Part shown: in pieces, positions 2-62,980 of the stretch | How the letters are laid out: each line of letters begins with the position of its first letter | Numbering within the stretch: the stretch's first letter is position 1 | IMG/VR virus record: IMGVR_UViG_3300037508_000348 | Strand: one strand, 5' to 3' | Source of the DNA: an uncultured virus (IMG/VR IMGVR_UViG_3300037508_000348) | Taxonomy: Duplodnaviria > Heunggongvirae > Uroviricota > Caudoviricetes | DNA: 64,000 nt | The notes under the pieces: model-generated | The model's input: only the letters and a program-made list of their open reading frames with translations | What the model was told of the DNA's origin: nothing | The model's database searches: none | Program-made: the position numbers and the translations under genes

Positions 2-3000
2 AAAGCGCTTGAGCGAATGCTCCAAGCAAAAACTCCAGCGGAAGCGGCTATTGCGCACCGTAAGTATTATGAGCGCCCCGGCGAAGCTGAAGCACGGGAT
101 GACAAACGTATCCAATATGCCAATCAGTTATTTTCTGGTGGGTATCAACCACAGCAAGAACAGGCTCAACCACAGGGGCAATTCGCTCGTAGCCCAGAGT
201 TCCAGCCTCATGTAGTCGGCGCTGGCGTAAGTAAACACCCTATTAGTCAGACTGATCCTCGCTTACAAAAAATTCTAAGCGTTGCTGCACAGAACTCTCC
301 TTTTGATGTGCAGTTCAAATCGGGCTACCGTCCCGGTGATAAGCGTCAGCACGGCAAACACAATGCTATCGACGTACAGCTTGTAGATAAGCGCACAGGA
401 GAGGCGTTCGCAGACTACCAAGACCCTCGGCATTTTAGAGATTATGAGCAGTTTGCACAAACTGCTAGGCAGGTGCAGGAACAATTATACCCCGAACTAG
501 GAGATGCTTTCCGTTGGGGTGGTTACTTCTCAGGTAAGAAAAACTATGGGGCGCTCGACCTCATGCACTTCGACATCGGGGGTGGTGAAGGTCTTGGAAT
601 GCGTGGTGGTTCTTGGGAAGGCGGTCTAAACGATCAACAACGCGCCCTTTGGAAAGGTGTTCAAAGTCAAGGCATGGGGCAACGCGCTCCTCAACTAGCT
701 TCAACTCAAGAATCCCCATACTACCCTGTTAGGCTCACTGATGGGCAGATATTCGACGTAGAGAAGGGCATGGGTCTGGATGAAGTAGATGCCATGTTAC
801 AGAAGAATGGTATCAATGCCCGCCCGCTACGCCCCTATACGGCTCCTGATGGTCGTCAGTTTGATGTCGAATATGATATGACTGATGACGAAATCATGGG
901 TATGCTGCAGAAAGCACCTCAACAGCCGGGGCAAGAGGAAGAGTCGAACTATCTAGGTGCGATGAAATACAACGCACAGCAGGCGCTTTCAGGCATAGCT
1001 CAGGGTGCGGGTACGGAGTTGGGTGAGCTAGGCAAAGCCGCTCAGGGTGCAGGGTTCCTTGGAGATTATGCTAAGCCTGTCAGTGAGTTTCTTACAGAAA
1101 AAGGAGCGCAGAGCCGCACCTATGGCGAGCAGCTAGGTAAAGACATCGAAGGCACCTACGAGCGCCCCAAGAACCTCAATGCTGTTGAGGAATACTTCTC
1201 CTATCCATTGGCTGAGACGGTGGGTGGTATCGCTCCTTATGTCGCTGCAGGCGGGCTATCTATGGTCCCCGGTGTCGGCGGTGTTCTTGGCCCTGCGGCT
1301 GTGGCTGGTGCTGTTCATGCAGGGGCTATGGGTGAGGGAGAACAACTGGCAAAGGCAGAAGGTAAAGAGTTTGTCCCTAGTGAGTATAGATTCCCCTATG
1401 CTGCGGCAGTCGACGCCGCCAATTTGGTTGGGTTGAATGTCCTTAACAAGGCACTCAAGGTTTTCGGCAAAGGAGCTATTCTGGGTTCCCGCGAAGCTAT
1501 CCAAGCTGCTGTAGAGAAAGGCGGTATAGAGGAAGCCAAGAAAGTAGTAGGCTCTCGTCTTAAAAATGTAGCGGGAGAGTTCCTAAAAGGCGAAGCAGCA
1601 TTGGTTAGCGGAGAGGTTATAGAAGATGCTATCAACCGTGAGTATCTAGGCAAACCCCTGCTGAGTGAAGAAGCGGGGCAGCAATACTTTGAGACTTTCA
1701 AACAGGTCGGTCCTCTCGGGTTAGTTACTGGCCCTATGGCTGGGCTGGGTACTCACTACAACAAAGCCATCGAAGTAGCACGGCTAGAAGAGCAGCAAGC
1801 TGTACAAGAAGCCCTTGCGCAACAAGAAGCGGAGCGTCAGAAGATTGGAGAGTTGCGTGATGTCGGCGTGTCTCCAGCGCAATTAGAGAAGTTCAAAGTT
1901 AAGAATGAGTTAGAAGGGCTCAGTGATGAAGATGCCCTTGCCGCCTACAAAGCAGACCAAGAAGCGATTGCCCAACGTAAAGCGGCTAAGATAGAAGAGC
2001 TTCCAGAAGAACTAAGGGACGTGCCTTACAAGGAAGCTAAGGTATATCAACAAATGCAGAAAGAACAAGCGGAGGTGCCTAGTGAAGAAGTATCTGGAGT
2101 ACCCGAAGAGCCTTCTGCTCCTGTTGAGCCTGTTAGTGGTGTTACCCCTCCTGCCGCTGAGATGGGTGCCGAAGAAATACCTGAGCCGTTTGTAAGAGGA
2201 AGAGCACAGGAAGTACAAGCGCCAGAACTCACAACACCAGAAGCACCAAAAGCACCGGAAGTAACAAACCCGGCAGACATCTTGGGCCTCAAGGCTAACT
2301 CTGGACTACGTAAACAACTGCAAAATCTGGATGTGAACAATGCTGCAGACCATCCAAAGATAGATGCCATACTGCAGAAGACTTCGGCTACGTTCTCCGC
2401 TGAGAATCTAGCTACCCTCGAAACCAAAATGAAGGAGGTACAGAATGCCAGCCAAGTCGAAGTCCCAAAACCGTCTGATGCAGGCCGTCGCCAACAGCCC
2501 CAAGGTGGCGAAGAAGTTGGGTATACCCCAGTCAGTGGGGAAGGAGTACGCATCAGCGACCAAGAAGGTAAAGGGATTACCGGAGAAGGTAAAGAAGGCC
2601 CGATAATCAAGGAAGTCAGAGGAGTAAGAGCACCGGAGATTGAAGTAGAGGGTGTAAAGCGCCCAACGACAGATAGCACGGGTGCTCCGATCCACACTAC
2701 TGAAGAAGGTGTGAAGAACTTCTGGAAAGGCTTTAAGGATACCAAGGTCGTTGATGCGGAAGGGCGACCACTTAAACTATATACAGGCACATCAAAAGAT
2801 GTAGATTTCACAAAGTTTAAGGCTCCCAAAAACGGGGTTTGGTTTACGCCAGATGCACAAGGGGCATCTCAGTACGCTATCGAAAACGATAGTATGGGTT
2901 ACACACAAGATGGATGGAAATTCATTCCTAAAAATACCGCCTCTCGCGTGATGCCTGTTTATGTAGCCCTTAAAAACCCTAAGCATTACGACAATATGGT

Positions 3001-6000
3001 AGATGCTATAGGGCAGGTGTCTAATTATAAAAAAGCGCAAGGGATTCTTTTTGATAGGCTAAAGGCAGAAGGGTATGATGGCGTTGTCTTTGGTGAAGGG
3101 GCCAGTGCTGTATACGTCGCTTTTTCCCCCAACCAAATCAAATCCGCTATCGGCAACAAAGGCGGGTTCGACGTAACTAAACCCGACATCAGAGAAGTCC
3201 AACCCGAAAGCCCCGATATTGGTAAGCTGCCTCTGGACGTAGCTAAATTCCAGACAGCTAAGAATGCACGGGAGCTACTGAACACCTTTTCTCAACACGG
3301 CACGGACGAGAACCTTCTGAAGAAGGCTAAGATTTTCCTAACCTCGCCTCATGCCGGAGCCGTGCGGACGCACTTTGTCTCTATGTCGGACCCTATGCCG
3401 CGAGATGTGCGGAATGCTTTTGAGAATAGAGGAGCGCTGGCTGCTACTTCTATCGGGCCAGACAAAGTAGAGATTTACTATCGCAAGGACAGCCCCGAAG
3501 CATTCAGCGAAGACAATGCGCTTCACGAAGTTACACATGCCCTAACCGAAGCTGGCCTGCAAAGGAATCCGGCGCTAAATACGGAGCTAAATTCTCTTGC
3601 TGGAACTATTGGCAAAGCCATAGAAAAGGATCATCCAGAAGCTGCAGCATTTTGGCGTGATGTTGTTAAAGAAGACGGTTCTGAAGCTCTTGCCTATGGA
3701 GCAACTTCTCCAACATTCAGGAAGATTCTTAGTCAGTACGATGAAAACGGCAATCGTATTCCAGAAGCGAAGCCGGAAATTCCCGTAGCCCAGAAACCGC
3801 GCACTCTGTGGGATAGGTTCAAGAGTTTTGTGGGTAAACTGTTTGGGGTGCCAGACAAGCAGAAAGAGAATTTCAGCAAAGCCGTAGATGAAGCACTGGC
3901 TAAAGGCACCACCCCCGTAGTAAAGCCTGTTTCGGCTAAGCTGGATGAAGCACTGGTGCAAGCCTTCAAAGACACGGCGAAGCGTGGGATCACCAAGCCT
4001 AAAGAAACCGTTGTAAAAGAAGTACGCGGTGAAACCCCCACACCCAAACCCTCCAAAGAAGAGCTAGCCGAAGCTGAGAAGCGTCTGAAAGACTCCGGTA
4101 TGGTCGGTGCTGTTAAAGACAGAACGCTGGGCACCAAGATGCGAGATGTTGTGAATGACATTTTTAAGGAAGGTAGGAACACTTCTTTTGTAGCGGAGGC
4201 TGTGGACATTAGGCAACCTATCTCCAAGGCTGTGCAGCCGTTGCCGGATATCATAGGTGAGAAGCTCAGGAGTGACTATATCTACAGCGCCTATGAGCAA
4301 CGGGGCAATGTCATTCAAGAGTCTTACCGTAAAGGCTTTGTCGCTATGGGCAGGGATGGCACGATTGAGGTTGTTAAGGACATCCAGCTTGCTTTGGCTG
4401 AAATCTTTAAGCGTGTGGGTGCCAAGAACCAAGAGATTTTCAGCAATGTGTTGGTAGCGCTTCGCGTCAGGACAATTAGAGCTCAGGATGCTGAGATCAG
4501 AGCGCAGGCCAACAAACTGCTTAATATGGCTGAGGAGATGCAGGACTATGCCAGTACCCTGAAGGATGCGGCTAAGCGTAAGAAGTTCAACGCGGCGGCT
4601 AGAAGCCTCACAAAGATAGCGGAGAAAAACCTAGAAAGAATCAACTGGGAAAAGGGCCGCACCGAGTATACAGATAAGGAAGTTAAAGATGCTGAGACTG
4701 TTATAGCAGGGCACCCAGAGCTTGCTCGTGAAGCCGAAAACGTCTATGCACTGCTGCGTAAGTCTGTTGATCTGTGGGAGAGTGAGGGGCTTGTAGATGC
4801 TGATAAAGCGAAGGAGTGGAAGGAATACCCCAACTATTTCCCTCTATATAAGGTAGCTGAGTATGATGAGCACATGGCAGACCCCTCCGAGCATATTGAT
4901 AGGTATGCTGACATGATGGGCAAGAGCCCGAAGAACCTTCCTACTGTACATGCTCAAGAACGGCACGCGCATCAGGTGTTTGTAGAAGACAACCTACTGC
5001 GACATATATCCTTTTTTGCTTCTGCGGCGGCGGAGCATTCAGCACGTAAGAACACGGCCTATAACCTTGAGATGGTAGGTAAGGCTGAGCGCATCAAGAA
5101 AGGCACCGAGAAGAAGGGCGAGCTTGTCGTTAAGTTCAGAGAGAATGGTAAGGACGTATTCTATAGAGTAGATGATGCTCCTGCGTACTATGCCATGCAG
5201 TCGGCCATGCCGTTGATGAGCCCTCTTCTGAAACGTATGCGCAGCGTGGGCAACTTCGCTCGCGGTGTGATGATTATGAACCCTCTGTTCTGGTATCGTC
5301 AGGCATTCCGTGAGCCTATTCAGGCCAGCCTCGTGGGTCGTGCGGGTGTCATCTCCACATTTGATACGTTGGGCGCTGTAAGCCGCATTGCTTCCGGTAG
5401 TGCTGTAGGTTATGAACGCCTGCGGGCTAAGGGCGTTATTGGTCCAGTGGATATCATTCCTGATCCTGCTGAGTTTATTAAAGTAGCTCAGAAAGGCAAG
5501 AGCATGGTGGCTAAGGGTCTGACGGGTATAAAGCATGTCCACGAAGCAATGGACGCTGCGACTCGTGTGGTGGTGTATGAAAAGGCTAAGGCTGACGCGC
5601 TCAGTAAGGGCTTCGATGAAGAGACGGCTGACGCTATTGGTGTGATGAAGGCACGAGAGATCATCAACTTCGCCAAACAAGGACGTAACAAGATGGTTCG
5701 GGCAGCGCGGGCTACTACTCCATTTTTCGGTGCAGCACTGAACAGTTTAGATGTTATGGCCCGTGCCGCCTTCCCCAGCAAGATAGGGCATCTGAGTAAA
5801 GCTGAGGCTATGGAGGCTAGGAGAAACTTCTACTCTACTGCATTCATGCTGGCTACGTTCTCTACGGCCTACGCTGCGGCTATGTCAGAGGATGAGGACT
5901 ATCTGAAAGAACCTGATCGTATAGGTAATTGGTTGATTCCTATCGGGGGTGGTAAGTTTATAAAAATTCCTATCCCGTTTGAAGCAGGGTGGTTTACCAA

Positions 6001-6781
6001 AGAACTGCCAGAACTTACGATGCTGCTCAACATGGGGGCTATCAATACACGCGAAGCGCTCACTGAGGCTAGAAAAGGGTTTACGGCTAACGTGCTTCCT
6101 CCGATGATAACGATCTACGCATTTCAGCCTTTCTTGGAAATTGCTGCCGACCATGACTTCTTTACGGGCTCCTCGCTTGAAGGCCGAGATGCTGAAGTGG
6201 CTGTAAGAGACAGAAATAGTAAATCCGGTGAACTCACAAAAGCCATCATCAACAAGATGGAAGACGCGGGTATTAACATTTTTGGCATGTCCGCCAACCA
6301 GCTTGAGCATCTGAATAAGAAGTTCTTGGGTCAACTATGGGCAGTGACCCGCACTGCCTCGGATGCTTATATAAATAGAGGGCGGGTTACACCAGAGAAA
6401 GAGCTTACCGAGATGCCTCTTATCAGTGGGGCCGTGACTTCAGGTACTAAGGATCGCGCTGTCGATCAGTTCTATACAGTGGCTAGGGAAGTATCGGAGG
6501 TCAATAAATCGTTTGAGCGTGCCAAGTCCCATGCAGACAAAAAGCGCTTCGATGAAATTACGACCAATCCAGAGAACGCCAAAGCCATTCAAGCTAGCAA
6601 GTCTTTGCGAGATAAAAAAGCAGAGATGGGCAAGTTAGCTACTGATATAGAGAAGATCAAAAACGATCAGTCTTTGACTTCAAAAGAGATGACCTCTCGA
6701 ATCAAGATGCTCAAAGACAGACAACGCCTTATTGCTAAGCTCGGAGTTGAGGAAGCGCGTAAGCTAGGGTTGGATATTTAG
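2..6781 (+). CDS. Giant polyvalent virion/ejection protein (5'-truncated): phage-tail-lysozyme C-terminus, M15-type peptidase, ART-PolyVal-like domain, HExxH metallopeptidase, LPD38-like C-terminus
   Basis: Frame is open from nt 2. Motifs: AAIAHRKYYERPG..RIQYA (lysozyme-like); SGYR..HGKHNAID..WGGYF..DLMHFD (M15); GRPLKLYTGT..VMPVYVALKNP..GYDGV..FSPNQIKSAIGNKGGFD (ART-PolyVal); HEVTH..SEALAY; IKIPIPFEAGW (LPD38). Confidence 0.8.
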   Translation, partial: KALERMLQAKTPAEAAIAHRKYYERPGEAEARDDKRIQYANQLFSGGYQPQQEQAQPQGQFARSPEFQPHVVGAGVSKHPISQTDPRLQKILSVAAQNSPFDVQFKSGYRPGDKRQHGKHNAIDVQLVDKRTGEAFADYQDPRHFRDYEQFAQTARQVQEQLYPELGDAFRWGGYFSGKKNYGALDLMHFDIGGGEGLGMRGGSWEGGLNDQQRALWKGVQSQGMGQRAPQLASTQESPYYPVRLTDGQIFDVEKGMGLDEVDAMLQKNGINARPLRPYTAPDGRQFDVEYDMTDDEIMGMLQKAPQQPGQEEESNYLGAMKYNAQQALSGIAQGAGTELGELGKAAQGAGFLGDYAKPVSEFLTEKGAQSRTYGEQLGKDIEGTYERPKNLNAVEEYFSYPLAETVGGIAPYVAAGGLSMVPGVGGVLGPAAVAGAVHAGAMGEGEQLAKAEGKEFVPSEYRFPYAAAVDAANLVGLNVLNKALKVFGKGAILGSREAIQAAVEKGGIEEAKKVVGSRLKNVAGEFLKGEAALVSGEVIEDAINREYLGKPLLSEEAGQQYFETFKQVGPLGLVTGPMAGLGTHYNKAIEVARLEEQQAVQEALAQQEAERQKIGELRDVGVSPAQLEKFKVKNELEGLSDEDALAAYKADQEAIAQRKAAKIEELPEELRDVPYKEAKVYQQMQKEQAEVPSEEVSGVPEEPSAPVEPVSGVTPPAAEMGAEEIPEPFVRGRAQEVQAPELTTPEAPKAPEVTNPADILGLKANSGLRKQLQNLDVNNAADHPKIDAILQKTSATFSAENLATLETKMKEVQNASQVEVPKPSDAGRRQQPQGGEEVGYTPVSGEGVRISDQEGKGITGEGKEGPIIKEVRGVRAPEIEVEGVKRPTTDSTGAPIHTTEEGVKNFWKGFKDTKVVDAEGRPLKLYTGTSKDVDFTKFKAPKNGVWFTPDAQGASQYAIENDSMGYTQDGWKFIPKNTASRVMPVYVALKNPKHYDNMVDAIGQVSNYKKAQGILFDRLKAEGYDGVVFGEGASAVYVAFSPNQIKSAIGNKGGFDVTKPDIREVQPESPDIGKLPLDVAKFQTAKNARELLNTFSQHGTDENLLKKAKIFLTSPHAGAVRTHFVSMSDPMPRDVRNAFENRGALAATSIGPDKVEIYYRKDSPEAFSEDNALHEVTHALTEAGLQRNPALNTELNSLAGTIGKAIEKDHPEAAAFWRDVVKEDGSEALAYGATSPTFRKILSQYDENGNRIPEAKPEIPVAQKPRTLWDRFKSFVGKLFGVPDKQKENFSKAVDEALAKGTTPVVKPVSAKLDEALVQAFKDTAKRGITKPKETVVKEVRGETPTPKPSKEELAEAEKRLKDSGMVGAVKDRTLGTKMRDVVNDIFKEGRNTSFVAEAVDIRQPISKAVQPLPDIIGEKLRSDYIYSAYEQRGNVIQESYRKGFVAMGRDGTIEVVKDIQLALAEIFKRVGAKNQEIFSNVLVALRVRTIRAQDAEIRAQANKLLNMAEEMQDYASTLKDAAKRKKFNAAARSLTKIAEKNLERINWEKGRTEYTDKEVKDAETVIAGHPELAREAENVYALLRKSVDLWESEGLVDADKAKEWKEYPNYFPLYKVAEYDEHMADPSEHIDRYADMMGKSPKNLPTVHAQERHAHQVFVEDNLLRHISFFASAAAEHSARKNTAYNLEMVGKAERIKKGTEKKGELVVKFRENGKDVFYRVDDAPAYYAMQSAMPLMSPLLKRMRSVGNFARGVMIMNPLFWYRQAFREPIQASLVGRAGVISTFDTLGAVSRIASGSAVGYERLRAKGVIGPVDIIPDPAEFIKVAQKGKSMVAKGLTGIKHVHEAMDAATRVVVYEKAKADALSKGFDEETADAIGVMKAREIINFAKQGRNKMVRAARATTPFFGAALNSLDVMARAAFPSKIGHLSKAEAMEARRNFYSTAFMLATFSTAYAAAMSEDEDYLKEPDRIGNWLIPIGGGKFIKIPIPFEAGWFTKELPELTMLLNMGAINTREALTEARKGFTANVLPPMITIYAFQPFLEIAADHDFFTGSSLEGRDAEVAVRDRNSKSGELTKAIINKMEDAGINIFGMSANQLEHLNKKFLGQLWAVTRTASDAYINRGRVTPEKELTEMPLISGAVTSGTKDRAVDQFYTVAREVSEVNKSFERAKSHADKKRFDEITTNPENAKAIQASKSLRDKKAEMGKLATDIEKIKNDQSLTSKEMTSRIKMLKDRQRLIAKLGVEEARKLGLDI
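2445..2606 (+). CDS. Nested 53-aa basic protein overprinted in the +1 frame of the giant gene
   Basis: AAGGAGG (2432-2438), 6 nt, then ATG. Translates as MPAKSKSQNRLMQAVANSPKVAKKLGIPQSVGKEYASATKKVKGLPEKVKKAR, resembling small phage proteins of the MPxxSKKQxxxMxAVAxxPxxAKKxGIPQSVGKE type. Confidence 0.75.
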   Translation: MPAKSKSQNRLMQAVANSPKVAKKLGIPQSVGKEYASATKKVKGLPEKVKKAR

Positions 6782-6783
6782 GC

Positions 6784-6814
6784 AAAAAGAAGCCCCTGTG
6801 GAGGATCAGGGGCT
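6784..6814 (-). terminator. Intrinsic terminator between convergent arms
   Basis: AGCCCCTG-N8-CAGGGGCT hairpin (6791-6814) followed on the minus strand by TCTTTTT. Confidence 0.7.
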
Positions 6815-14108: not shown

Positions 14109-14488
14109 TTTCCCCGTTCGCTATCTACTGTGTTTATGGCTTCAACTGTGGCTCTTAGTAGAGAATCCACAACGCCCCTTTCAAGCCTTCCTCTAACTGA
14201 TATAACTACATGATCTGAAACGGGGTACGTTGTGCCATCTATTGTTACAGATATGCTATCTTCAGCCTCAGGGTATGTTTGTTCTATGTAAAAAGCTAAA
14301 TTAGTAGGGAAGGCGGTTTGTGAATGAGAGTGATCGTAGATGCGATCAAATTTTCCTTGTATCAGACTGAATGGTGTCTTTACACGTATACACGGTGTAG
14401 ATAAAGAGGTGTTAGTTTTTGTAAGCCTGTCTATGTCGATAGTGGTTGCCCAACCATTTCTTATTATAGGTATTTCGCTCATTTTCAC
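14105..14488 (-). CDS. Hypothetical protein (AT-richer accessory gene)
   Basis: 127-aa ORF overlapping both neighbours by 4 nt. Confidence 0.55.
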   Translation of the reverse strand: MKMSEIPIIRNGWATTIDIDRLTKTNTSLSTPCIRVKTPFSLIQGKFDRIYDHSHSQTAFPTNLAFYIEQTYPEAEDSISVTIDGTTYPVSDHVVISVRGRLERGVVDSLLRATVEAINTVDSERGK

Positions 14489-17313
14489 TTCTCCAGTTTC
14501 TTCATCTTAAATGACAAGTCCTCACCGTACCCCCCTTCAGCGTCCAGCGGCATGTTAGGTAGCCATGCTGGAGCCTTGCGTAGCTCAGTGATAATATCTA
14601 TCCGCGCTTGGTCTGCCTCTTCTGCACGGACGGCACAGTATAGCGCATCATGGATCGTAAGGCCAATAGGATACCGTTTGTGGACCCTGACCATCGCCTC
14701 ACCCATCACACACCTAGCCAAAGCCTGAATGATGTTCTGATAGCACTTGGCCGGATGTATGTGGACCAACCCTTTTCTCGTGCCATATACCCATTGTTTC
14801 CGGCCTTGCTCATCTTCGGTAATCTTGAGGTCGGGGTATGCCATAAACAGGCCGGAGGGTAAGCGAATGCCCCTCCTACCCAGCACATCCAACTTCAACT
14901 CCCCTAGCCCTATCGTGATGGCTTCATTATTTACGATAGCCTCAAGTGCTCTTCCTGCATCGTACCAAGCGGCTCTGACCTGCGAGTAATCTTTGCGGTA
15001 GATGTTTACCACGTTTTGAGAGAATTCTTCTCCAATATCCCTACCTGACAGCATCTTGCATTGGGCTCTTAGCTTCTTGGCTCCCGTGCCATAAATCAAC
15101 GCCAAGCAGTTAGAAACCAGCAAATTGTTCACAGTGAATCTATGCCTTGGCCCTGCATTTAGGATGTCATAGACTCTAACCTTTCTTTCAACCCTTTCCA
15201 GTTTTTTCTCTTGTGTGCTACTGCATCCCACGCTGTTTGTATTATCTCTTCGCCAGTCAATCCCTGTTTGGCATACTTCATAACAGTGCGTATCCGGGCG
15301 TAGGGGTTTTCTTTCCATTCGGATGCCAGAATTTTCTCTCCTTTCCATAGTATGTAGAACGTATTGCGCCGATTGCTGACTTGTTCCTTCTGCGTAGCAA
15401 AACGAAGATTGCCGCGAGTGTAGTGCCCCTCGTTGTCTATGCGATCCACAGATAAATGTATGGAACAATTTGGCAGCGTCTTCAAGTAGTCCACGCACTC
15501 TGCAATCGAATCGAACTCGAATCGAATCCCACGCCCCCCATAATTTTGGAATCCCTTGTCGCGCTCGTTTTTGCAGCGTTGGTACATGGCGTTTGCCCTC
15601 TTCTGCAGTCGCGCTGTTAACTTGTCCCCAACGTGCAAATGCCCCGCATTTTGATGGACTCTTCTTAATGCACATGGCTTGCAGGAACGTGATAATCCCC
15701 GATCTAATGACCCCTGATGCAGCCATTTCACCAAGCCGCAGTCGCAGCGCGCTTGGATCAGTAAGCACTGCCTCTTGCCACTCCTTCGTATTTCGGTGCT
15801 GATTATGGTCCACGCATTGAAGCGCTTTCCCTTCATCTCCGGTGACAATGATACGCGCTCTTTTGTCGGCGGCGAACCCGAACTCGCAGGACGTACCATC
15901 TTCCAGATAAACGATATGGTCTGATGTGGCTGTGAGTCCTTGATAGCTGATGACATTTCTTTCTCCCATGTATGCCACCCCGTCGTGGCAAACCCATTCT
16001 ACCCCATCCCATACTTTATCGTCCAACAAAATGTTTTGTATCGGGATGAGTCCCCTGTCGGTCAGCACTAACTCTCCTTCCGCGATACATGCTGTTTTGC
16101 CTACAAAGCGTTGGTCATCATCTACACTCTCATAGGCCACATCAAATGCCTTAGAAGCAAAATCCTTATATAGATCAAGCCCATCACCCAGCATCTCCAG
16201 CTTATCCATCTGCCCCGCAAAAGCCAGACCCACACGTAGCTCAATGTTCGATAAGTCAGCACCGACAATGCTGTACCCCATAGGAGCGATGATAGCTTTC
16301 TTTAGCTTTGACCCCCTTGGTATGTTCTGAAGGTTAATCGAATCAATGGCACTCCAGCGCCCCGTAATTGCACCGTAGTATTTCAGCGGTACGGGCAACG
16401 CACCACCTGCCTCATGGATTCTTATGAATCTCTCGGTTCTCGTCTCTTCGATGGTGCTCTTTACCCCAAGTCTAGCGGCTACAATCGCTTGAACAAAGAT
16501 GTTTTCATGCTCCAGCAACGCCTTGAACGCTTCATCCCTCTTGGCGAAAGCATAGGTTTCCTCACCTGTTGTCGGGCTTATTTTAGTCGGAGGCTCTACA
16601 CCAAAATTCTTTAAGACCTCAGCCAGCTTGGGGTTGCTCATCAGGTCATCTTTTACGATGCCGCATTCGTCCAGTAGCTGCTCCTTTCTTTGCCTTACAT
16701 TTTGCAGATGCTCCTCAAGAATGCCTCTGTCTAGCTCGAACTGCGGCATGGTGTGCATCTTGATCGTCATGTCGATCAACGCGATCTCGGTCTTGTCAAA
16801 AGATGAAGCCAGTTGTCGAAACAAATCATAAGTAAGGGCGACATCGTTTTTACAATACTCCCCATACCGAGCCAATTCCGCTTCACTAAAGTCTGCCCTA
16901 CGCTTACCCATAGCATCGACCACTTCAGTACCCTTCACCCCTAGGTTGTAGCGTTCAGCCAACTTAGCTAGCGAACCTCCAGCATCCACGCCGTGTACAG
17001 CACGGGCCATTGAAAGGGTGCAAAGCAGAAGTTTTGGGTATATTCCGAATTTCCACGCTAAGATCGTGGCATCAAATAGAGCATTATGCATCAGAGCAAA
17101 GGAGCTCTCCCAATCAAACTGCTTCAGCCAGTCTTTAGTCTCCTCATGAGTGCCGCTAAACCATTGTGGCTCTTCGCTATTTTTCTTTACTGATACACCG
17201 ATTACCTCAAACCTCTCATCGTCAATGTAGCTCTGAGTAGTTGTGTCTTTCTTGGATAGGGAATAGTCTTTACTCCACGCCGTTTCAAAGTCAATCGAAT
17301 ATACGTCCATCAC
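14485..17313 (-). CDS. Family A DNA polymerase precursor containing an intein (mature protein about 615 aa)
   Basis: Exo motifs DFET, HNALFD, YCKND; TGRWS, NLQNIPR; motif A DLSNIELR; motif B RFVGKTA|CLALIYG split by the intein; motif C TIHDA. Confidence 0.95.
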   Translation of the reverse strand: MMDVYSIDFETAWSKDYSLSKKDTTTQSYIDDERFEVIGVSVKKNSEEPQWFSGTHEETKDWLKQFDWESSFALMHNALFDATILAWKFGIYPKLLLCTLSMARAVHGVDAGGSLAKLAERYNLGVKGTEVVDAMGKRRADFSEAELARYGEYCKNDVALTYDLFRQLASSFDKTEIALIDMTIKMHTMPQFELDRGILEEHLQNVRQRKEQLLDECGIVKDDLMSNPKLAEVLKNFGVEPPTKISPTTGEETYAFAKRDEAFKALLEHENIFVQAIVAARLGVKSTIEETRTERFIRIHEAGGALPVPLKYYGAITGRWSAIDSINLQNIPRGSKLKKAIIAPMGYSIVGADLSNIELRVGLAFAGQMDKLEMLGDGLDLYKDFASKAFDVAYESVDDDQRFVGKTACIAEGELVLTDRGLIPIQNILLDDKVWDGVEWVCHDGVAYMGERNVISYQGLTATSDHIVYLEDGTSCEFGFAADKRARIIVTGDEGKALQCVDHNQHRNTKEWQEAVLTDPSALRLRLGEMAASGVIRSGIITFLQAMCIKKSPSKCGAFARWGQVNSATAEEGKRHVPTLQKRARQGIPKLWGAWDSIRVRFDCRVRGLLEDAAKLFHTFICGSHRQRGALHSRQSSFCYAEGTSQQSAQYVLHTMERRENSGIRMERKPLRPDTHCYEVCQTGIDWRRDNTNSVGCSSTQEKKLERVERKVRVYDILNAGPRHRFTVNNLLVSNCLALIYGTGAKKLRAQCKMLSGRDIGEEFSQNVVNIYRKDYSQVRAAWYDAGRALEAIVNNEAITIGLGELKLDVLGRRGIRLPSGLFMAYPDLKITEDEQGRKQWVYGTRKGLVHIHPAKCYQNIIQALARCVMGEAMVRVHKRYPIGLTIHDALYCAVRAEEADQARIDIITELRKAPAWLPNMPLDAEGGYGEDLSFKMKKLEK
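15109..16089 (-). mobile_element. Intein, 327 aa (residues 409-735 of the polymerase precursor)
   Basis: Block A CIAEGELVLTDRG, block B LTATSDHIVY, blocks F/G VYDILNAGPRHRFTVNNLLVSN, +1 Cys; removal restores motif B. Confidence 0.92.
15159..15956 (-). CDS. HNH homing endonuclease nested in the intein in a different reading frame
   Basis: ARCDCG..SCKPC..AMYQRC..NYGGRGI..SVDRIDNEGHYTRGNLRFATQKEQVSNRRN; GGAG SD 6 nt before ATG 15956 (alternative ATGs at 15899 and 15836). Confidence 0.88.
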   Translation of the reverse strand: MSSAIKDSQPHQTISFIWKMVRPASSGSPPTKERVSLSPEMKGKRFNAWTIISTEIRRSGKRQCLLIQARCDCGLVKWLHQGSLDRGLSRSCKPCALRRVHQNAGHLHVGDKLTARLQKRANAMYQRCKNERDKGFQNYGGRGIRFEFDSIAECVDYLKTLPNCSIHLSVDRIDNEGHYTRGNLRFATQKEQVSNRRNTFYILWKGEKILASEWKENPYARIRTVMKYAKQGLTGEEIIQTAWDAVAHKRKNWKGLKERLESMTS

Positions 17314-22820: not shown

Positions 22821-23721
22821 TCTTCTATCCTCATATTGCACTCGTCTGTGTCCTTGTCAATTAAAGTCGTTGTGTAGGAAATTCTTCTCTCTATTCCATC
22901 TGTCACCTGTCTATCCGCTTCAATCTGCGTATGCCTGCGGCATTGCTCCTTCTTGCTGCATCCTTTTCCATAGCATCTAGCCATGTCGTAAGGTAGAAAG
23001 CGGAAGTTTTTTGTACCCATAGTGGTCGCGTCCTTGGGGTTTTCTGTGTGGATGGTATCGCTCTGCTTTGATTAGCCAGCCTAGCTTGGCTGTCACCTTG
23101 TAAAAGATGTTGCGATTTTTAGACGGTCTAAAAATCTGATTTTCCTGCAAGTTCTTCTTTAGAAAATACTTTGTCATTGGTTGGTCCTCCATTTTCATGC
23201 CACTCAATACATGCCTGCCACCCCGCATAGAAAGCCTCGAACCTATTGGGTACTCTGTTCAAGTCTTTCATAGCATCGGCTCTCCACTCATCAAACGCTG
23301 CGGTGAGTTCATCCCTACTCATTTGTTTACTGTCCTTTCCATGCGTATGCACACTTGTTCTCCATCTTCTACATCATACTCAGCACAGGCCCAGTTGCGC
23401 TTGTCATAGGTGCCTGGCTTTTGATCCACTGGTATTAGGTACAAAGCTATACCGAGCACAGCCATCCATAGCACATAGCCCCATTCATTTGCTGTCATTG
23501 GGTAAGTATCCTTTGATAGTTAAATAATATACGTTGCCCTGTAGGTTGGGTTTAAGCCCTATCCCTTGTATCTCATTACCAACCCCCGCTATGTCTAGCA
23601 GGGCCATCGAGGACTGCATCCAGTCGGGTATATCCTTAGTAGATGTTTTTACAGCATCATTGAAATTATAAAGGAGGTATCTGTCTTCTAAGGACTCTAC
23701 CCGTATCCTAGCTGCTCTCAT
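22817..23721 (-). CDS. Run of small hypothetical genes (22817-23020, 22977-about 23200, 23128-23322, 23319-23498 membrane peptide, 23485-23721)
   Basis: ATGA-coupled small ORFs; the 59-aa MTANEWGYVLWMAVLGIALYLIP.. ORF is below the track cutoff. Confidence 0.5.
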
Positions 23722-24854
23722 AGCTCCATAGTCAGGCTCGTTCCAATGGGGGCGGATAGCCCTTTTGTTGTTATTGCCCATAGTGTTGGATGCTCTATAG
23801 TTTCCGGGAAAGGTGTGTAGCCATCTGTTAGTACGATAATTGCTTCTGGTTTAAGATTGTTTTTCTGCACGTACTTTAATATCTCACGCATGTCTGTGCC
23901 ACCGCCACCATGCAACTCTGTAATAGCCCCTAGCTGGTCTAGGGAACCTTGGTCGAAGACCTTGTGTGACTGTATGATGGCATCGCATTCGATAAAATGC
24001 AACAGCTCAGGCGAAACATTTTGGCAGATGCCCACCACCTCAGATAGAAACTCTGACACCATCGGGCCCGACACACTACCACTTGTGTCCACACCTATCA
24101 CCAAAGCACCCATAGACTCAGAGATGGATGACGACATATACATATCCTCACCCAGCCATCTGCGGTTCGGCCTGCGCCATGTAGAGTCATCATGCCCCTG
24201 AGATACAGTACTCATGAACTCCTGCAACTGCTCACGCCAGTCGATCTTGGGGGCAGTCAACTCACCTATCACACGGCTCTCGTCACCACCCATCTTGCCA
24301 GCCATGAGCGCACCTTGACGTATGGCCTGCTCTATCTCTTTACCTAGTTGGGCCTTGTCCTCCTCAGATAGCTGGTCGAACTCATGCTCATCAAAGCCAC
24401 CCGTACCCCCATCCTCACCCTCTTCCTTGAGCCTGCGATACACCTCACCTGTGTCCATACCTCTGAAGTCCTTACGATACAGCCCACTCTTAGGTAAAGC
24501 GATGAAGCCGGGATGCTCCTTCTCTAAATCCTTGATCTCTATGTTGATGACATAATCTGCGGATTGGTTAGCCAGCTTGGGGTTCTCCTTCCATAGATGC
24601 TTCCACAACCACGCATGTTGATACGCCTTGTGCAAGTTCTCATGCAGCACCACCCCCGCCAACTCCTGATCCGTTAAGCTCTCAACGAAAGCTCTTCCAT
24701 ACAACACATCACGACCATTGGTACACGCGGTAGGTATTGTGTCCTCTATCTTGGAATCACCCACCATAATCAAGCCAGAGTAAGCCATCGTTGCCTTGTG
24801 TCCCATGAGCCTGACGTGGGACTTCTGTATGCGTTGCTCTGCTGTTAGGTTCAT
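23718..24854 (-). CDS. Metallopeptidase-like plus vWA domain protein (DUF2201-like)
   Basis: TACTNG, LHENLH, RRPNRR, MIDAS DTSGS, GGGGTD, LTDGY. Confidence 0.85.
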   Translation of the reverse strand: MNLTAEQRIQKSHVRLMGHKATMAYSGLIMVGDSKIEDTIPTACTNGRDVLYGRAFVESLTDQELAGVVLHENLHKAYQHAWLWKHLWKENPKLANQSADYVINIEIKDLEKEHPGFIALPKSGLYRKDFRGMDTGEVYRRLKEEGEDGGTGGFDEHEFDQLSEEDKAQLGKEIEQAIRQGALMAGKMGGDESRVIGELTAPKIDWREQLQEFMSTVSQGHDDSTWRRPNRRWLGEDMYMSSSISESMGALVIGVDTSGSVSGPMVSEFLSEVVGICQNVSPELLHFIECDAIIQSHKVFDQGSLDQLGAITELHGGGGTDMREILKYVQKNNLKPEAIIVLTDGYTPFPETIEHPTLWAITTKGLSAPIGTSLTMEL

Positions 24855-40112: not shown

Positions 40113-40505
40113 ATGACGTTTCATGCAAATGTAGACATAGAAGCCACGCTTAAAACAGCGGAGGAATTGGGCGATAAACTTCCCGATCCGGTTGGCTACC
40201 AAATGCTGGTCATCAAACCAAAAATAGAAGAAGTCACAGCGGGAGGTATCATCAAACCTTCTGAGTTTCTTCGTAAGGAAGAAGCGGGGTCTGTTCTCGG
40301 CCTTGTGCTTAAAATGGGTGATTTGGCTTACCGAGATGAAGCTAAATTTCCTACCGGAGCTTGGTGCAAAGTTCATGACTTTGTGTTGATTGGAGCGTAT
40401 CGCGGTTCACGTTTCAGTGTCGATGGAGAAGAGTTCACGATCATAAACGACGACATGATCTTGGGCACTATCAAGGACCCGTCAGGGATTAACCGTGCTT
40501 ATTAA
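40113..40505 (+). CDS. GroES-like co-chaperonin
   Basis: PVGYQMLV..VTAGGIIKP..VLKMG..YRGSRF..IINDDMILG. Confidence 0.85.
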   Translation: MTFHANVDIEATLKTAEELGDKLPDPVGYQMLVIKPKIEEVTAGGIIKPSEFLRKEEAGSVLGLVLKMGDLAYRDEAKFPTGAWCKVHDFVLIGAYRGSRFSVDGEEFTIINDDMILGTIKDPSGINRAY

Positions 40506-42571: not shown

Positions 42572-43480
42572 ATGGCTGCTATTTCACGCGCTCAGTTACT
42601 TAAAGAGCTACTCCCCGGCCTCAACGCCCTCTTCGGTCTGGAATATGATCGTTATGGCGAAGAGTGGAAAGAACTGTTTGAAGTTGAAAGCTCTGACCGT
42701 TCCTTTGAAGAAGAACAGAAGCTCTCCGGTTTCGGTGCTGCTCCTGTTAAGAACGAAGGTTCTGCCATTTCTTATGACACCGCACAGGAAGCATGGTCTA
42801 CTCGCTATACCCATGAAACCATCGCTCTGGGCTTCTCCCTGACCGAAGAAGCTGTGGAAGATAACCTGTATGACTCTCTGTCTGCTCGTTATACCAAGGC
42901 GCTGGCTCGTGCTATGTCCTACACCAAGGAAGTCAAGGGTGCCAACATCCTGAATAACGGCTTCAACAGCAATTACGCTGGTGGTGATGGCAAGGAACTG
43001 TTCTCTAACGCTCACCCGTTGGTCAATGGCTCTACCCTGTCTAACGTCCCGTCTACTCCGACTGATCTTAACGAAACCTCTCTTGAGAATGCCGTTATCC
43101 AGATCAGCCTGTGGACTGACGAGCGTGGTCTGCTGATTGCAGCAAAGCCGAAGAAGTTGGTAATCCCGCCAGCCCTTCAGTTCGTGGCTACTCGTCTGTT
43201 GGAAACCCAGCTTCGTGTCGGCACCACCGACAACGACGTGAACGCTATCGTGAACAACGGCAGCATTCCGGGTGGTTACACCATTAACCACTTCTTGACC
43301 GACACTAACGCTTGGTTCCTGCAGACCGATGTTCCGAACGGCATGAAGCATTTTGTACGTGCTGCGTTGAGTACTTCGATGGACAGTGATTTCGACACCG
43401 GAAACGCTCGCTACAAGGCTCGAGAGAGGTACAGCTACGGCTGGAGCGATCCCCTGTCGATGTTCGGTAGCCAAGGCTAA
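42572..43480 (+). CDS. Major capsid protein
   Basis: MAAISRAQLLKELLPGLNALFG, LFSNAHP, PKKLVIPP, KARERYSYGWSDP; AAGGAG SD; followed by a terminator. Confidence 0.9.
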   Translation: MAAISRAQLLKELLPGLNALFGLEYDRYGEEWKELFEVESSDRSFEEEQKLSGFGAAPVKNEGSAISYDTAQEAWSTRYTHETIALGFSLTEEAVEDNLYDSLSARYTKALARAMSYTKEVKGANILNNGFNSNYAGGDGKELFSNAHPLVNGSTLSNVPSTPTDLNETSLENAVIQISLWTDERGLLIAAKPKKLVIPPALQFVATRLLETQLRVGTTDNDVNAIVNNGSIPGGYTINHFLTDTNAWFLQTDVPNGMKHFVRAALSTSMDSDFDTGNARYKARERYSYGWSDPLSMFGSQG

Positions 43481-43603: not shown

Positions 43604-44551
43604 GTGAAAAACGTAATCTATGTGATTCGTAATGTGGTCAACGGTAAATTCTATGTAGGCAGCACTGTTGATGCTCGTGTGAGGTTCCAAGCGCACAAAA
43701 GGCGGTTAAAAAAAGGAACGCACCAAAGCCCTCATCTGCAAGCCGCATGGAATAAGTACGGCGAGGAATGTTTTAAGTTTGAGGTAGTGGCTAGCGTTGA
43801 GGATAGGGATGAGTTACTCGCCGTTGAGCAAGTTTGGTTAGACGAACACGCGGGAAAGACCCATTGCTACAACTGGGCTGCAGATGCTAGCGCCCCAATG
43901 CGAGGAAAAAAACATACTTCTGAAGCCGTAGCTAAAATGTCGCTAAAACATGTGCCCAAAGGTGAAGAGCACTACCGTTTTGGTAAATCGCTAGAGGAAG
44001 AAGTTAGGAAGAAAATAGGAGACACGCAGAGGGGTGTACCTAAAGCGCCGGGGCGAAAAGTTTCGGAAGAAGGCAGAGCCAACATAGCGGCTGCAGCAAA
44101 GAGAGGTAAAGAGTGCCATTTTTATGGCAAGCGGCCCACAAACGCCGACGACCTACAGAAAGCTGTTCATGCGGTACTTCCAGATAGGACAACCAAGGTG
44201 TATAGCAGCCTTACGGAAATGCGAGACACACTGGGGCTAGCTATAGGAACAATCATTCGCGCCTGTAAGTCGGGTAAACCTATTGTGTTTGGCCTCCACG
44301 CCGGTTGGGTGCTGTCGTATGTGGATGGAGAAAGAAACTTAGCTCCAGAAATCCCAAAGGAATACTTAGCCTATCCACGCACTAGACAAGAGGCTAAAGC
44401 TACCGGGGCCAAACACTATTTCACAGGTATTCCCTGCGATAGAGGCCATATCTCTCCACGTAAAACAAAAGGCACATGCGTTGCTTGTATGAAAGAAGAC
44501 TACAAAAAGGACAATGACAGGCGCAAACAGAAGACGCTTGACACTCCCTAA
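43604..44551 (+). CDS. Free-standing GIY-YIG homing endonuclease with NUMOD3-like repeats
   Basis: VIYVIRN..FYVGST..R..H..LQAAWNKYG..EQ..YN; GKKHTSEA; C-terminal HYFTGIPC..GH..CVAC. Confidence 0.9.
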   Translation: MKNVIYVIRNVVNGKFYVGSTVDARVRFQAHKRRLKKGTHQSPHLQAAWNKYGEECFKFEVVASVEDRDELLAVEQVWLDEHAGKTHCYNWAADASAPMRGKKHTSEAVAKMSLKHVPKGEEHYRFGKSLEEEVRKKIGDTQRGVPKAPGRKVSEEGRANIAAAAKRGKECHFYGKRPTNADDLQKAVHAVLPDRTTKVYSSLTEMRDTLGLAIGTIIRACKSGKPIVFGLHAGWVLSYVDGERNLAPEIPKEYLAYPRTRQEAKATGAKHYFTGIPCDRGHISPRKTKGTCVACMKEDYKKDNDRRKQKTLDTP

Positions 44552-50084: not shown

Positions 50085-50154
50085 CCTAAACGCACAAGGG
50101 GCAGCGACAACTGCCCCGAAGTGCTACACCACCAATCTGAGAAGGAGATTGAAG

Positions 50155-50655
50155 ATGCAAAACGATACTATCATCATAGAAAATGCAGCGCAACTACTTG
50201 ACTATGACCCAGAAACGGGGGAGATGGTGTGGAAAGTCCGCAAAAAAGGAAGTCGCGGGCGGGGTAAAAAAGCCGGCTACGCCAGTCACGGCTATATCGT
50301 AGTAGGGTTAACCGGGAAGCGCTTATTCGGGCATAGGATAGCGTGGTTTTTACATTATGGGAATTTACCAGAACAGCAGATAGACCACAAAGACAGAGAT
50401 CGCTCAAACAATAAAATATACAACCTGCGAATAGCCGAGAATAATTGGTTCGATAATCATCAGAATAGGTCGCTACCGTCAAACAACACTTCCGGTGTAA
50501 TAGGCGTAAAATGGCATAAAGTTAGTGGCAAATGGGTGGCGCAGATACAGGTCAATAAGAAACAGATACATTTAGGGCTTTTTGAATCTTTTGAAGACGC
50601 AGTTGCCGCACGTAGAGCCGCTGAGTTAAAATATTTTACGTTTGCTAATCCATAG
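50155..50655 (+). CDS. HNH-AP2 homing endonuclease
   Basis: YDPETG, HRIAW, IDHKDRDRSNNKIYNLR, NNTSGVIGV, IHLGLF; AAGGAG SD. Confidence 0.88.
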   Translation: MQNDTIIIENAAQLLDYDPETGEMVWKVRKKGSRGRGKKAGYASHGYIVVGLTGKRLFGHRIAWFLHYGNLPEQQIDHKDRDRSNNKIYNLRIAENNWFDNHQNRSLPSNNTSGVIGVKWHKVSGKWVAQIQVNKKQIHLGLFESFEDAVAARRAAELKYFTFANP

Positions 50656-61691: not shown

Positions 61692-62552
61692 ATGTCGCTA
61701 TTTGGAACATTAACCGCTATTGGGGGCGCTATTGCTTCTGCTGCTTCGGCTATCGGGGCACCTGTCGCTGGTCTTGCTTCTGCTATGGGGGCTTCTACAG
61801 CCACAGCGGGTACTATCGGATCAGTAGCAGGTTCAGCGGCATTAGGCTCGGCTTCAGGTGCTGCACTCACGGCTGCTACGGGGGGCGATCCGGGGCAAGG
61901 GGCTCTTTTGGGGGCACTCACTGGTGGCGCTACAGCGGGTCTTGGGGCATTGGGCGGCGCAGCCGCACCTGCGGGGGGTATAACAGGTCAAGCGGGTCAA
62001 GCGGCCACTGCAGCGCAACCGGCAGTCAGTGAGATCACTAAGGGAGTAGCCACTCCAGCATTTCAACAGGCAGCGGGCGGTATTCCCGGCGCGGCTCAAG
62101 TCGCAGCGGCAGAGCCTTCTGTTAGTGCTATAACTCAGGGTGTAGCTACTCCAGCATTCCAACAAGCATCTCAAACAGCGGCGGCTAATGCTGCAGGCAG
62201 CGGAGGTATTGGTTCTCTTCTTAGCAATAACACCGTTAAAGGTGTCGGCATGGACCTCGCCAAAGAAGGGATCGGAACGGGAATGGATAATATGCAACAA
62301 GCGCAGCGATCAGAAGAAGGGAGAAAACTTGCTCAGCAGGCAAGCATGGACTTTCAAGCGGAGCGAGATCAGCAGAGTGCTGATATACGAAACAAAGTGG
62401 GTAAGACTTTTAGCGGTATGAACTTTGCTCAGGGCGGAGAAGTCGGTTTGAAAGAGGGACAGTTCATTATTCCAGCCGATGTTGTCAGTGCGTTGGGCAA
62501 TGGGTCCACTAAAGCGGGTGCTAACTTCTTGGATGAGTTCTTCGGTGTATGA
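61692..62552 (+). CDS. Putative Ala/Gly-rich ejection (pilot) protein
   Basis: Long GA-rich hydrophobic N-terminus; duplicated P.VS.IT.GVATPAFQQA; FIIPADVVSALGNGST.AG. Confidence 0.6.
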   Translation: MSLFGTLTAIGGAIASAASAIGAPVAGLASAMGASTATAGTIGSVAGSAALGSASGAALTAATGGDPGQGALLGALTGGATAGLGALGGAAAPAGGITGQAGQAATAAQPAVSEITKGVATPAFQQAAGGIPGAAQVAAAEPSVSAITQGVATPAFQQASQTAAANAAGSGGIGSLLSNNTVKGVGMDLAKEGIGTGMDNMQQAQRSEEGRKLAQQASMDFQAERDQQSADIRNKVGKTFSGMNFAQGGEVGLKEGQFIIPADVVSALGNGSTKAGANFLDEFFGV

Positions 62553-62962
62553 GTTGGAAAGCTAAAGTCGTCCCTGCTGACTTTGCAAACGTAGTGTGGG
62601 ATGAGGTTGAAGGTTTCCTAGAGAGGTCCGTTCAGTATTCTTATGGGGAATTGACGCTAGAGGAGATTAAAATGCGTGTGCTAGATGGTACATGGCTTTT
62701 GATTGTGGCTATTGACGATTCTGATATAATTCGTGGAGCTTCTACTGTTACATTTTTTAACAGAACAGACAATCGCGTTGCTTATGTAACCAGCATTGGA
62801 GGGCGGCTTTTAGCTAACCTCGACACTTTTTCGCAATACTGTGACATTCTCAGACAGCATGGTGCTACTTGTATTGAAGGTGCTGTAAGAGATTCCCTGA
62901 TGCGCTTATGGGCTAGGCTTGGTGCCCATAAAAAAACCACCATTGTACAGATAGCGCTATAA
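62549..62962 (+). CDS. Hypothetical protein (possible acetyltransferase-like fold)
   Basis: 137 aa, ATGA-coupled; IEGAVRDSLMRLW pattern. Confidence 0.5.
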   Translation: MSWKAKVVPADFANVVWDEVEGFLERSVQYSYGELTLEEIKMRVLDGTWLLIVAIDDSDIIRGASTVTFFNRTDNRVAYVTSIGGRLLANLDTFSQYCDILRQHGATCIEGAVRDSLMRLWARLGAHKKTTIVQIAL

Positions 62963-62980
62963 ATTTACGAGGTCACTATT

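Follow-up and report, generated by a model that had tools for sequence, protein, structure and literature searches.

A widespread small phage protein appears to be encoded out of frame within the gene of a giant polyvalent virion-type protein

The DNA studied here is a 64,000-nt stretch of an uncultured virus of the class Caudoviricetes (IMG/VR record IMGVR_UViG_3300037508_000348), and by "the window" we mean this stretch at its full length. The window opens with the gene of a giant polyvalent virion-type protein (P0002). Wholly within this gene, and on the same strand, lies a short open reading frame (ORF) for a basic protein (P0001) preceded by a Shine–Dalgarno (SD) motif (Table 1). Since (2445 − 17) mod 3 = 1, the small ORF occupies the +1 frame of the giant one. 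A first-pass annotation, made from the letters of the sequence only, had already described a perfect AAGGAGG, a spacer of 6 nt and an ATG at 2445 opening a +1-frame ORF of 53 amino acids (aa), and the peptide was recovered exactly as quoted there. Below we present comparative data suggesting, with a probability that we estimate at roughly 0.85, that 2445–2606 is a functional protein-coding gene nested in the same strand and in the +1 frame of the giant gene. Its product is most likely translated from its own start, as judged from the conservation of this region in related phages.

Table 1. Coordinates of the nested gene, of its signals and of the surrounding parts of the giant gene in the window
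Feature	Position	Strand	Remarks
Giant polyvalent virion-type protein gene	2..6781	+	first ATG at 17 gives 2254 aa (17..6781); ART-PolyVal, LPD38
Mosaic central segment with the nested gene	2182..4029	+	no nucleotide similarity to relative L100
Helical mini-domain of the giant protein, residues ~750-811	2264..2449	+	AlphaFold2 block-mean pLDDT 71-84, fragment residues 111-170
Shine–Dalgarno motif AAGGAGG	2432..2438	+	6 nt (tacaga) before the ATG; giant frame reads K-E-V
Giant-frame codons 810-863 ("linker") over the small gene	2444..2605	+	apparently unconstrained, stop-free
Nested gene (probable), 53-aa basic protein P0001, PHROG 16759	2445..2606	+	ATG 2445-2447, TAA 2604-2606
ART-PolyVal domain, giant residues 913-1051	2753..3169	+	E 8e-19, 69 bits (Pfam cut-off 31)
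LPD38 domain, giant residues 1960-2136	5894..6424	+	E 2e-16, 61 bits (Pfam cut-off 27)

The small protein belongs to a family represented in many phages. P0001 matches the 58-position profile phrog_16759 (E 1.8e-17, residues 1–45 on positions 1–45) and also the first ~45 positions of phrog_25121 (263 positions) and phrog_22033 (845 positions), "virion structural protein". A tblastn search with P0001 retrieved 112 isolated-phage records. Annotated free-standing members are QQM14872.1 of BUCT555 (52 aa), PHIKZ165.1 of phiKZ (58 aa) and gene "51" of Eowyn (52 aa, "structural protein"); in BUCT555, a 687-aa gene with a match to a portal PHROG (E 2.6e-124) shares its last 11 nt with the family member. 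In Escherichia phage 121Q the module forms the N-terminus of gp51, a protein of 263 aa labelled as structural. The IMG/VR collection provided 184 relatives, of which 80 loci were kept, and in these 80 the ORFs, counted from the homologous Met, are 49–396 aa long. An alignment of 33 family members (A1) served as the basis of a family profile, which was searched against 1.84 billion cluster representatives and detected 2,987 of them at E<=1e-3 and 1,356 at E<=1e-10. The match starts at residue 1 in about 133 (counted by hand) of the 150 proteins listed, which are 54–1245 aa long, and M1, P2, S5 and Q8 are invariant across the 33 sequences of A1, so that M-P-x-x-S-x-x-Q stands at the initiator Met. 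The members are normally either free-standing proteins of 50–60 aa or the extreme N-terminus of longer virion-associated proteins. The first-pass annotation had noted a likeness to small basic proteins that stand free among late genes, and PHROG 16759, BUCT555, phiKZ 165.1 and many IMG/VR contigs bear this out. It had also seen no free-standing copy in the 45–49 kb cluster, which holds for the whole window: in all six frames the family hidden Markov model (HMM) found a single copy at 2433–2603 (E 1.6e-30), the next best match having an E of about 1. Two proteins from very short contigs, P0003 (92 aa, 504-bp contig) and P0026 (135 aa, 533-bp contig), are 96% and 86% identical to the small protein; they were called with different ends, one having a 38-residue upstream extension in the small frame and the other being longer, with a different C-terminal continuation.

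Relatives of the giant gene were found by searching with the giant protein and with alignments of its N-terminal (A2) and C-terminal (A3) parts. Hereafter L-numbers denote contigs or loci retrieved as relatives, either of the small gene (from IMG/VR) or of the giant gene. Five further distinct giant-gene lineages cover the site in 12 contigs, which together with the window makes six lineages and 13 independent assemblies. The identity of their giant proteins to that of the window is 75–79% for L084/L085 (the same as L100/L101), 58–59% for L092/L093/L097 (L102/L103), 39–46% for L104–L108, 31–38% for L004 (L109) and 26–47% for L086 (L096; 34% over the longest aligned stretch). All six lineages have a homologue of the small gene at the same site, again shifted +1 against the giant ORF. 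A GAGG/GGAGG core precedes the start by 6–9 nt; four lineages (the window, L004, L084 and L104) start with ATG and two (L086 and L092) with GTG. The embedded ORFs comprise 53–55 codons and end with a Lys/Arg-rich tail in every lineage. A stop codon in the small frame lies 3–28 codons upstream of the start, and in L084 it falls between the SD motif and the ATG. Since the relatives keep both readings intact, the nested gene appears to be real.

The family HMM was run on 12 giant-gene loci, omitting L101 and L103 as duplicates of lineages already covered, and detected the small gene in eight. The remaining four are L110, a truncated contig, and L111–L113, whose more distant giant proteins (1844–2289 codons) are 23–24% identical in the C-terminal part; L112 shares the ART region. 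No family member was detected on either strand within 10 kb in L110–L113 at E<0.5. Free-standing copies sit in phages unrelated to the giant-gene lineages. A split intermediate, with the small gene between separate N- and C-terminal parts, was not found among 83 small-gene loci (80 of the 184 relatives kept), of which only L004 resembles the giant protein.

To compare selection on the two frames, we used the first 45 codons in 15 lineage pairs and Nei–Gojobori estimates. The substitutions are distributed as 239/181/317 over small-frame codon positions 1/2/3; with 317 at position 3 and 181 at position 2, it is position 1 of the giant frame that is most variable and position 3 that is least. The ratio of nonsynonymous to synonymous substitution rates (dN/dS), to be read as indicative, is 0.07–0.55 for the small frame in the 14 pairs with a defined dS (0.08 for window–L004, 0.07 for L084–L104 and 0.20 for L086–L092; in window–L084 dS is saturated and hence undefined), and the apparent giant-frame values in the same columns are 0.88–32. 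The amino-acid identity between the window and L004 is 0.89 in the small frame, 0.51 in the giant frame and 0.56 in the unused third frame, i.e., over the overlap the giant frame is no better conserved than a frame that is not used. Beyond the overlap the giant frame shows the pattern of an ordinary gene: 21 of the 27 strain-variant places in contigs from four lake runs are third codon positions of that frame (9 of 13 at 1942–2138 and 12 of 14 at 2670–2719). No variant is listed between 2172 and 2669 in the strain contigs.

A stop codon arises in the giant frame whenever a small-frame codon ends with T and the next one begins with AA, AG or GA, a situation frequent in a Lys-rich protein. In five embedded genes T was found at none of the 65 stop-prone sites within the 45 codons (0 of 87 over the full ORFs), and in 58 distinct non-embedded homologues it occupies 233 of 761 such sites. 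The giant-equivalent frame is open in two of these 58 (L027 and L055) and in none of the 19 free-standing genes of up to 70 aa. The codon usage of the family is thus reshaped at this locus: T makes up 0–4% of third positions in the embedded genes vs. 4–38% in 15 non-embedded rows. Taken together, these patterns suggest that the giant frame over the small gene looks like an unconstrained passenger linker, yet one actively kept free of stops. In every lineage the two halves of the giant gene share a frame, and no giant-frame Met follows soon after the small stop, so the giant ORF is one gene and the overlap is truly dual-coding. On these grounds, both reading frames are judged to be maintained by selection. 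The first-pass proposal of dual coding at this locus is therefore upheld, with the small frame under purifying selection and the giant frame kept stop-free; a lack of homologues and of frame-specific constraint, which would have spoken against that proposal, is contradicted by the BLAST and HMM searches, synteny and frame-specific conservation, by which homologues and small-frame constraint were found.

The linker itself had been described as featureless. This is correct in so far as no Pfam domain was found over giant residues 810–863, but the SD motif and the start lie at the end of a helical mini-domain that is confidently predicted (Table 1). In the AlphaFold2 (AF2) model the mini-domain ends right at these signals; L086 and L102 keep it, L100 and L104 have a variant form, and in L109 little of it is left. 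Over residues 810–863 no secondary structure was predicted (block-mean predicted local distance difference test, pLDDT, ~24–51), which is a weak test of disorder, since the known ART domain also scored low in the same model.

The region around the start codon (−30..+20) is less structured than 86–95% of the giant-gene positions in the five lineages tested, which is consistent with an accessible start. A promoter/terminator scan of 1800–3000, with a sigma-70-like consensus that may not be that of the host, gave nothing on the plus strand. An ORF of 260 aa on the opposite strand (2047–2829, −) spans the nested gene; in the relatives the antisense frame is open for 79–283 codons but in no consistent register or length, so that this ORF is probably a by-product of skewed codon composition.

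The data could be explained differently if the small domain were never made alone but joined to parts of the giant protein by programmed ribosomal frameshifting, either extending a truncated N-terminal fragment of the giant protein at its C-terminus (+1 shift near 2440) or forming the N-terminal end of the downstream two-thirds (start at 2445, −1 shift near 2600). In favor of this, the domain is the in-frame N-terminus of long proteins (100–1245 aa) in many other phages, A-AAG-type strings are present in its Lys-rich tail, and SD-like motifs are known to stimulate frameshifting in prfB and dnaX. However, the start codon (ATG/GTG) falls precisely on the family's Met1, the embedded ORFs match the complete free-standing homologues in length (53–55 aa) and basic tail, the small-frame stop just upstream leaves only two codons for a +1 shift in L084, and no slippery heptamer was noticed at a conserved position when the 3′ ends of four lineages were inspected by eye, without a dedicated scan. 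We consider frameshifting very unlikely. The small ORF might also be a dead relic of a gene that once stood alone, was engulfed by the giant gene and has fallen silent; gene calling passed over the ORF in this genome (no protein in the collection matches it at 100%), and it lies in a region resembling a disordered linker. Such a relic would decay, and the constraint would be on the giant frame and not on the small one, whereas the small-frame dN/dS values point to the opposite, and the start, SD motif, length and frame are intact in six lineages despite near-saturated synonymous sites. The relic explanation is therefore strongly disfavoured.

According to another explanation, the giant ORF would be two genes flanking the small one, with the through-frame open by chance or because of an assembly error. 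Although the lack of constraint on the giant frame over the overlap and the position at a mosaic junction between modules would be in line with this, the halves are in the same frame with a stop-free connection in all six lineages and 13 independent assemblies, whereas just 2 of the 58 non-embedded homologues have this connecting frame open. Moreover, no giant-frame Met occurs in the 20 codons after the small stop, nor for many codons beyond, and contigs from four further runs span the site without indels, which makes two separate genes hardly credible. Finally, conservation might act on the nucleic acid, as a recombination joint or an RNA element, the protein reading being incidental, because the segment is an island of nucleotide identity (80% vs. 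L109) inside diverged genes and sits at the border of swapped downstream modules. But the substitutions follow a small-frame coding pattern (position 3 > 1 > 2), the amino-acid sequence matches a protein family of thousands, and the start region is weakly, not strongly, structured; we attach very little weight to this explanation.

Several points weigh against the nested-gene reading and have to be set beside the evidence for it. The bare length of the ORF and its SD/ATG motif are within chance: three plus-strand alternative-frame ORFs of at least 53 aa (85, 53 and 66 aa) exist inside the giant gene, and AGGAGG-N4-9-ATG occurs 6 times in the window vs. 3.3 expected, a number reached in 13 of 100 shuffles, with four of the five remaining matches opening ORFs of 64–164 aa. 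It is homology and conservation in relatives, not motif or length, that is judged to provide the above-chance evidence from the sequences. The six lineages are related and so do not represent six independent tests, and the Nei–Gojobori estimates ignore the overlap, with dS near saturation in most pairs; for these reasons the selection values are indicative and not a formal test. No Pfam hit was obtained for the window protein (E<=0.1) or for any of the 33 members (E<=0.05), and no relative of solved structure emerged, the profile search giving nothing below E 0.36. As for function, it rests on neighbourhoods, fusion partners and labels, and no experiment was found behind the label "structural protein" in 121Q and Eowyn.

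The comparison of giant genes showed that the nested gene sits within a mosaic. With respect to L100, the giant gene is 96% identical over 687–2181 and 88.6% identical over 4030–6798, the segment between being dissimilar (Table 1). With respect to L109, the single strong nucleotide match in the 6.8-kb gene is at 2428–2594 (80%, E 1.5e-38), and this match comprises the SD motif and the small gene, ~170 nt that are essentially all the two have in common. Strain contigs diverge from the window at ~2170 and ~2639. Upstream of the mosaic segment, a 3-base AGC insertion after 2067 was seen in two lake runs, in frame, in a Pro/Glu-rich part of the giant protein. Different modules follow the small gene in different lineages, ART-PolyVal in the window and others at the same position in relatives. 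The small protein of the window is 88% identical to that of L004, 74% to that of the free-standing L005 and 53% to those of the closest giant-gene relatives. This mosaic pattern indicates that the small gene is the constant element at a variable junction and has been exchanged among giant genes. In a poorly resolved tree of 52 domain sequences (45 columns) the embedded genes fell into three pairs, and a single clade was not rejected (p-value of 0.216 in the approximately unbiased test); the tree is compatible with one capture as well as with several.

These results bear on how the arrangement arose. The word "overprinted" used in the first-pass annotation is wrong, because the small gene is the old partner and the giant linker reading over it is the newcomer. 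Embedding through loss of the stop codon of an upstream gene has been discussed as a possible route (PMC6139136), and this corresponds to the absorption of a whole gene into a linker assumed previously. A nested gene was indeed found in the linker of six lineages, but absorption is not to be preferred over insertion: insertion into a linker already present would explain just as well why three more distant giant proteins lack the small gene.

Most probably, then, an old and widespread small-protein gene, and not a de novo overprint, sits inside the giant gene. The giant protein would read across it as a linker whose sole requirement is the absence of stop codons, and this requirement would be met by avoiding T at the third codon positions of the small gene. 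The small protein would be initiated independently at its own SD motif and ATG, on a late mRNA that presumably also encodes the giant protein. Its predicted product is a three-helix mini-protein with a Lys-rich tail: the AF2 model built on A1 has a mean pLDDT of 88.8, with helices at 6–17, 19–25 and 29–38 followed by the basic tail, and superposes (Foldseek) on the predicted structures of the Phabio and 201phi2-1 family members with TM-scores of 0.89 and 0.88. A Foldseek search of the PDB gave weak rows of the helix-turn-helix type (E about 4–9), and the best Z in a wide VIA-align search was 3.2. A match to Ribosomal_L11_N (E 0.005, 17 bits vs. the cut-off of 32.9) was below threshold and was rejected.

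The family presumably resembles DUF3008 (PF11450) and DUF6321 (PF19846) in the style of the N-terminal sequence, and no hmmscan hit to either was obtained. An indirect lead to DUF3008 is a neighbour cluster in the ESM Atlas with 37% DUF3008 members (score 0.93), and Foldseek gave probabilities of 0.97–0.99 to proteins bearing the two labels (0.97 for the DUF3008-labelled one), but neither the window protein nor any of the 33 members reaches the Pfam gathering threshold. These families are at best distant relatives of the small protein and serve as a lead only. Our literature searches for "PHIKZ165.1", "gp165.1" and "DUF3008" returned no mention.

With low confidence we propose that the small protein is virion-associated, acting either as a small internal or DNA-contacting protein or as a handle for incorporation into the virion. 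This proposal follows from late-gene neighbourhoods, fusion partners (protease-like, lysin- or tape-measure-like, "structural") and database labels. Among the free-standing members, L005 is upstream of terminase and portal genes, L008 is directly upstream of portal and scaffold genes, and in L063, L066 and L078 tail-fibre genes follow within the locus, a few kb downstream of the small gene. Among the fused ones, P0141 has a C-terminal head-maturation-protease-like region (phrog_530, E 6e-15; DUF2213), P0060 and P0113 have weak tail-lysin or tape-measure-like glycine-zipper regions (E about 1e-6), and DUF6321 lies C-terminal to the module in P0028, P0098 and P0074, the last also having NUDIX. 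A BLASTP comparison of the long fused homologues P0113 and P0060 with the giant protein gave nothing significant. Beyond the small gene, the loci of the close free-standing homologues L005–L008 have nothing in common with the window by tblastx (1e-8) except three fragments of ~17 residues in L005 that match the minus strand near 30.0–30.2 kb. A predicted complex of the small protein with giant residues 214–809 scored 0.00, controls not having been run.

A broader possibility, which we regard as doubtful, is that the ~45-residue module is a general virion-incorporation handle that here would be given in trans from the giant cargo gene, while the same DNA segment doubles as a homology patch for swapping the downstream effector modules of the polyvalent protein. 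If so, cargo and handle would be co-transcribed and co-inherited in this clade. The module forms residue 1 onward of thousands of phage proteins, including those of structural, protease, lysin and tape-measure types.

The host gene answers to the description of a polyvalent protein, with several domains in one giant polypeptide encoded after the tail module, and it shares ART-PolyVal and LPD38 with the phage-type proteins of this class, which are predicted to be packaged in the capsid (Iyer et al. 2017, PMC5512222). Since the giant frame is open from base 2, its true N-terminus may lie outside the window. The synteny with L100 supports this: positions 1–1819 of L100 match window 62220–64000, the giant gene of L100 begins ~3.4 kb further on, and L100 from 5842 onward matches the window from 655 onward. 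A weak match to Phage_lysozyme2 (E 0.006, below the cut-off), in which giant residues 3–39 align with positions 101–137 of 140 and hence near the profile end, likewise points to a cut-off N-terminus. Genes are cut at both ends of the window, as the last ORF (62981–64000) runs off the 3′ end. These data suggest that ~3.4 kb of the genome lie between the end and the start of the window, in which case the genome would be ~67 kb if circular or permuted.

The DNA comes from a lake-water phage. Matching contigs were found in lake and freshwater metagenome runs (20 rows listed, 20 studies), seven of which may be sources of this DNA; no RNA run is among the sequencing runs listed as carrying the stretch. 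A replication module (primase/helicase, helicase, family A polymerase) occupies the minus strand, and a late module (large terminase, portal, capsid protein, tail proteins) the plus strand. The nearest isolates by the large terminase (~53% identical) are Phage DSL-LC04, phage 023Pt_psg01 and Pelagibacter phages HTVC027P and HTVC023P. A nucleotide search of 1800–3400 against isolated phages gave no match, the whole giant protein gave domain-level matches only (12 records), and in the nearest virus record, G001, a 52%-complete fragment, neither the small nor the giant protein was matched.

Some further features of the genome may be mentioned. A GroES-like co-chaperonin gene (40113–40505, +; phrog_3188, E 5e-13) is located between the portal and capsid genes, and the capsid gene (42572–43480) looks complete, covering positions 26–256 of 262 of Phage_capsid_4. 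Three homing-type endonuclease genes are present: a GIY-YIG-like one (43604–44551, +) directly after the capsid gene, and two HNH genes, in the tail module (50149–50655, +) and in the replication module (23718–24854, −). The ORF of the family A DNA polymerase (14485–17313, −; 942 aa) is matched by polymerase profiles in two blocks, residues 1–408 and 737–927; about 1 kb of it (15106–16124) has no counterpart in the close relative L100, and a 265-aa ORF (15159–15956) runs inside it in a different frame of the same strand. Pfam gave neither an intein nor an endonuclease domain for the polymerase ORF. The first-pass annotation had counted the nested gene as the second dual-coding locus of this genome, and the polymerase locus may be the other one that it meant.

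Small genes nested in the same strand of larger ones are known from other systems. ComS is a lineage-restricted peptide. A nested architecture similar to ours is seen for comS within srfAB of Bacillus subtilis (PMC8160284), but comS is a cellular regulator, and here we deal with a widespread phage family shuffled as a cassette among giant genes. The Rz/Rz1 pair of phage lambda is alike in that a larger gene contains, on its own strand and in its +1 frame, the whole of a small one that has its own start and is usually missed by gene callers. As given in PMC6139136, 182 of 528 two-component spanin systems are embedded, and the o-spanins previously reported are in the +1 frame. Unlike Rz1, however, the product here is no lipoprotein, having no Cys (thus no lipobox Cys) and no hydrophobic signal sequence, and there is no lysis context; the host gene encodes no i-spanin but a polyvalent virion-type protein of more than 2,250 aa. 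Whereas in spanins both frames encode functional sequence, the host frame here is a passenger linker, and the nested gene, again unlike Rz1, belongs to a widespread family that is free-standing elsewhere. With the members of PHROG 16759 it shares the family, the invariant M1/P2/S5/Q8 and the predicted three-helix fold, but those members stand alone or are fused in frame, and here the gene is nested out of frame. A limited literature check turned up no report of genes nested within those of polyvalent proteins; the main text of PMC5512222 holds 0 occurrences of "overlapping", "out-of-frame" and "frameshift", so that the nested gene is what distinguishes our case from the proteins covered there. 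Our case differs from Rz/Rz1 and comS/srfAB in having an ancient and widespread nested partner under an unconstrained host linker, a giant polyvalent virion-type protein as its host, and a position at, and movement with, a module-swapping junction.

In this work, we provide comparative-genomics support for a real protein gene that standard annotation overlooks on account of its location within another gene. The route to the overlap is the reverse of classical overprinting, in that an old gene has come to lie within a new frame, and the host protein tolerates an arbitrary stop-free linker. The finding draws attention to a family, so far uncharacterised, that comprises small phage proteins as well as N-terminal modules in ~3,000 clusters and is linked to virion proteins. 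It also marks a recombination junction in the polyvalent injected proteins, a class of interest for phage–host conflict.

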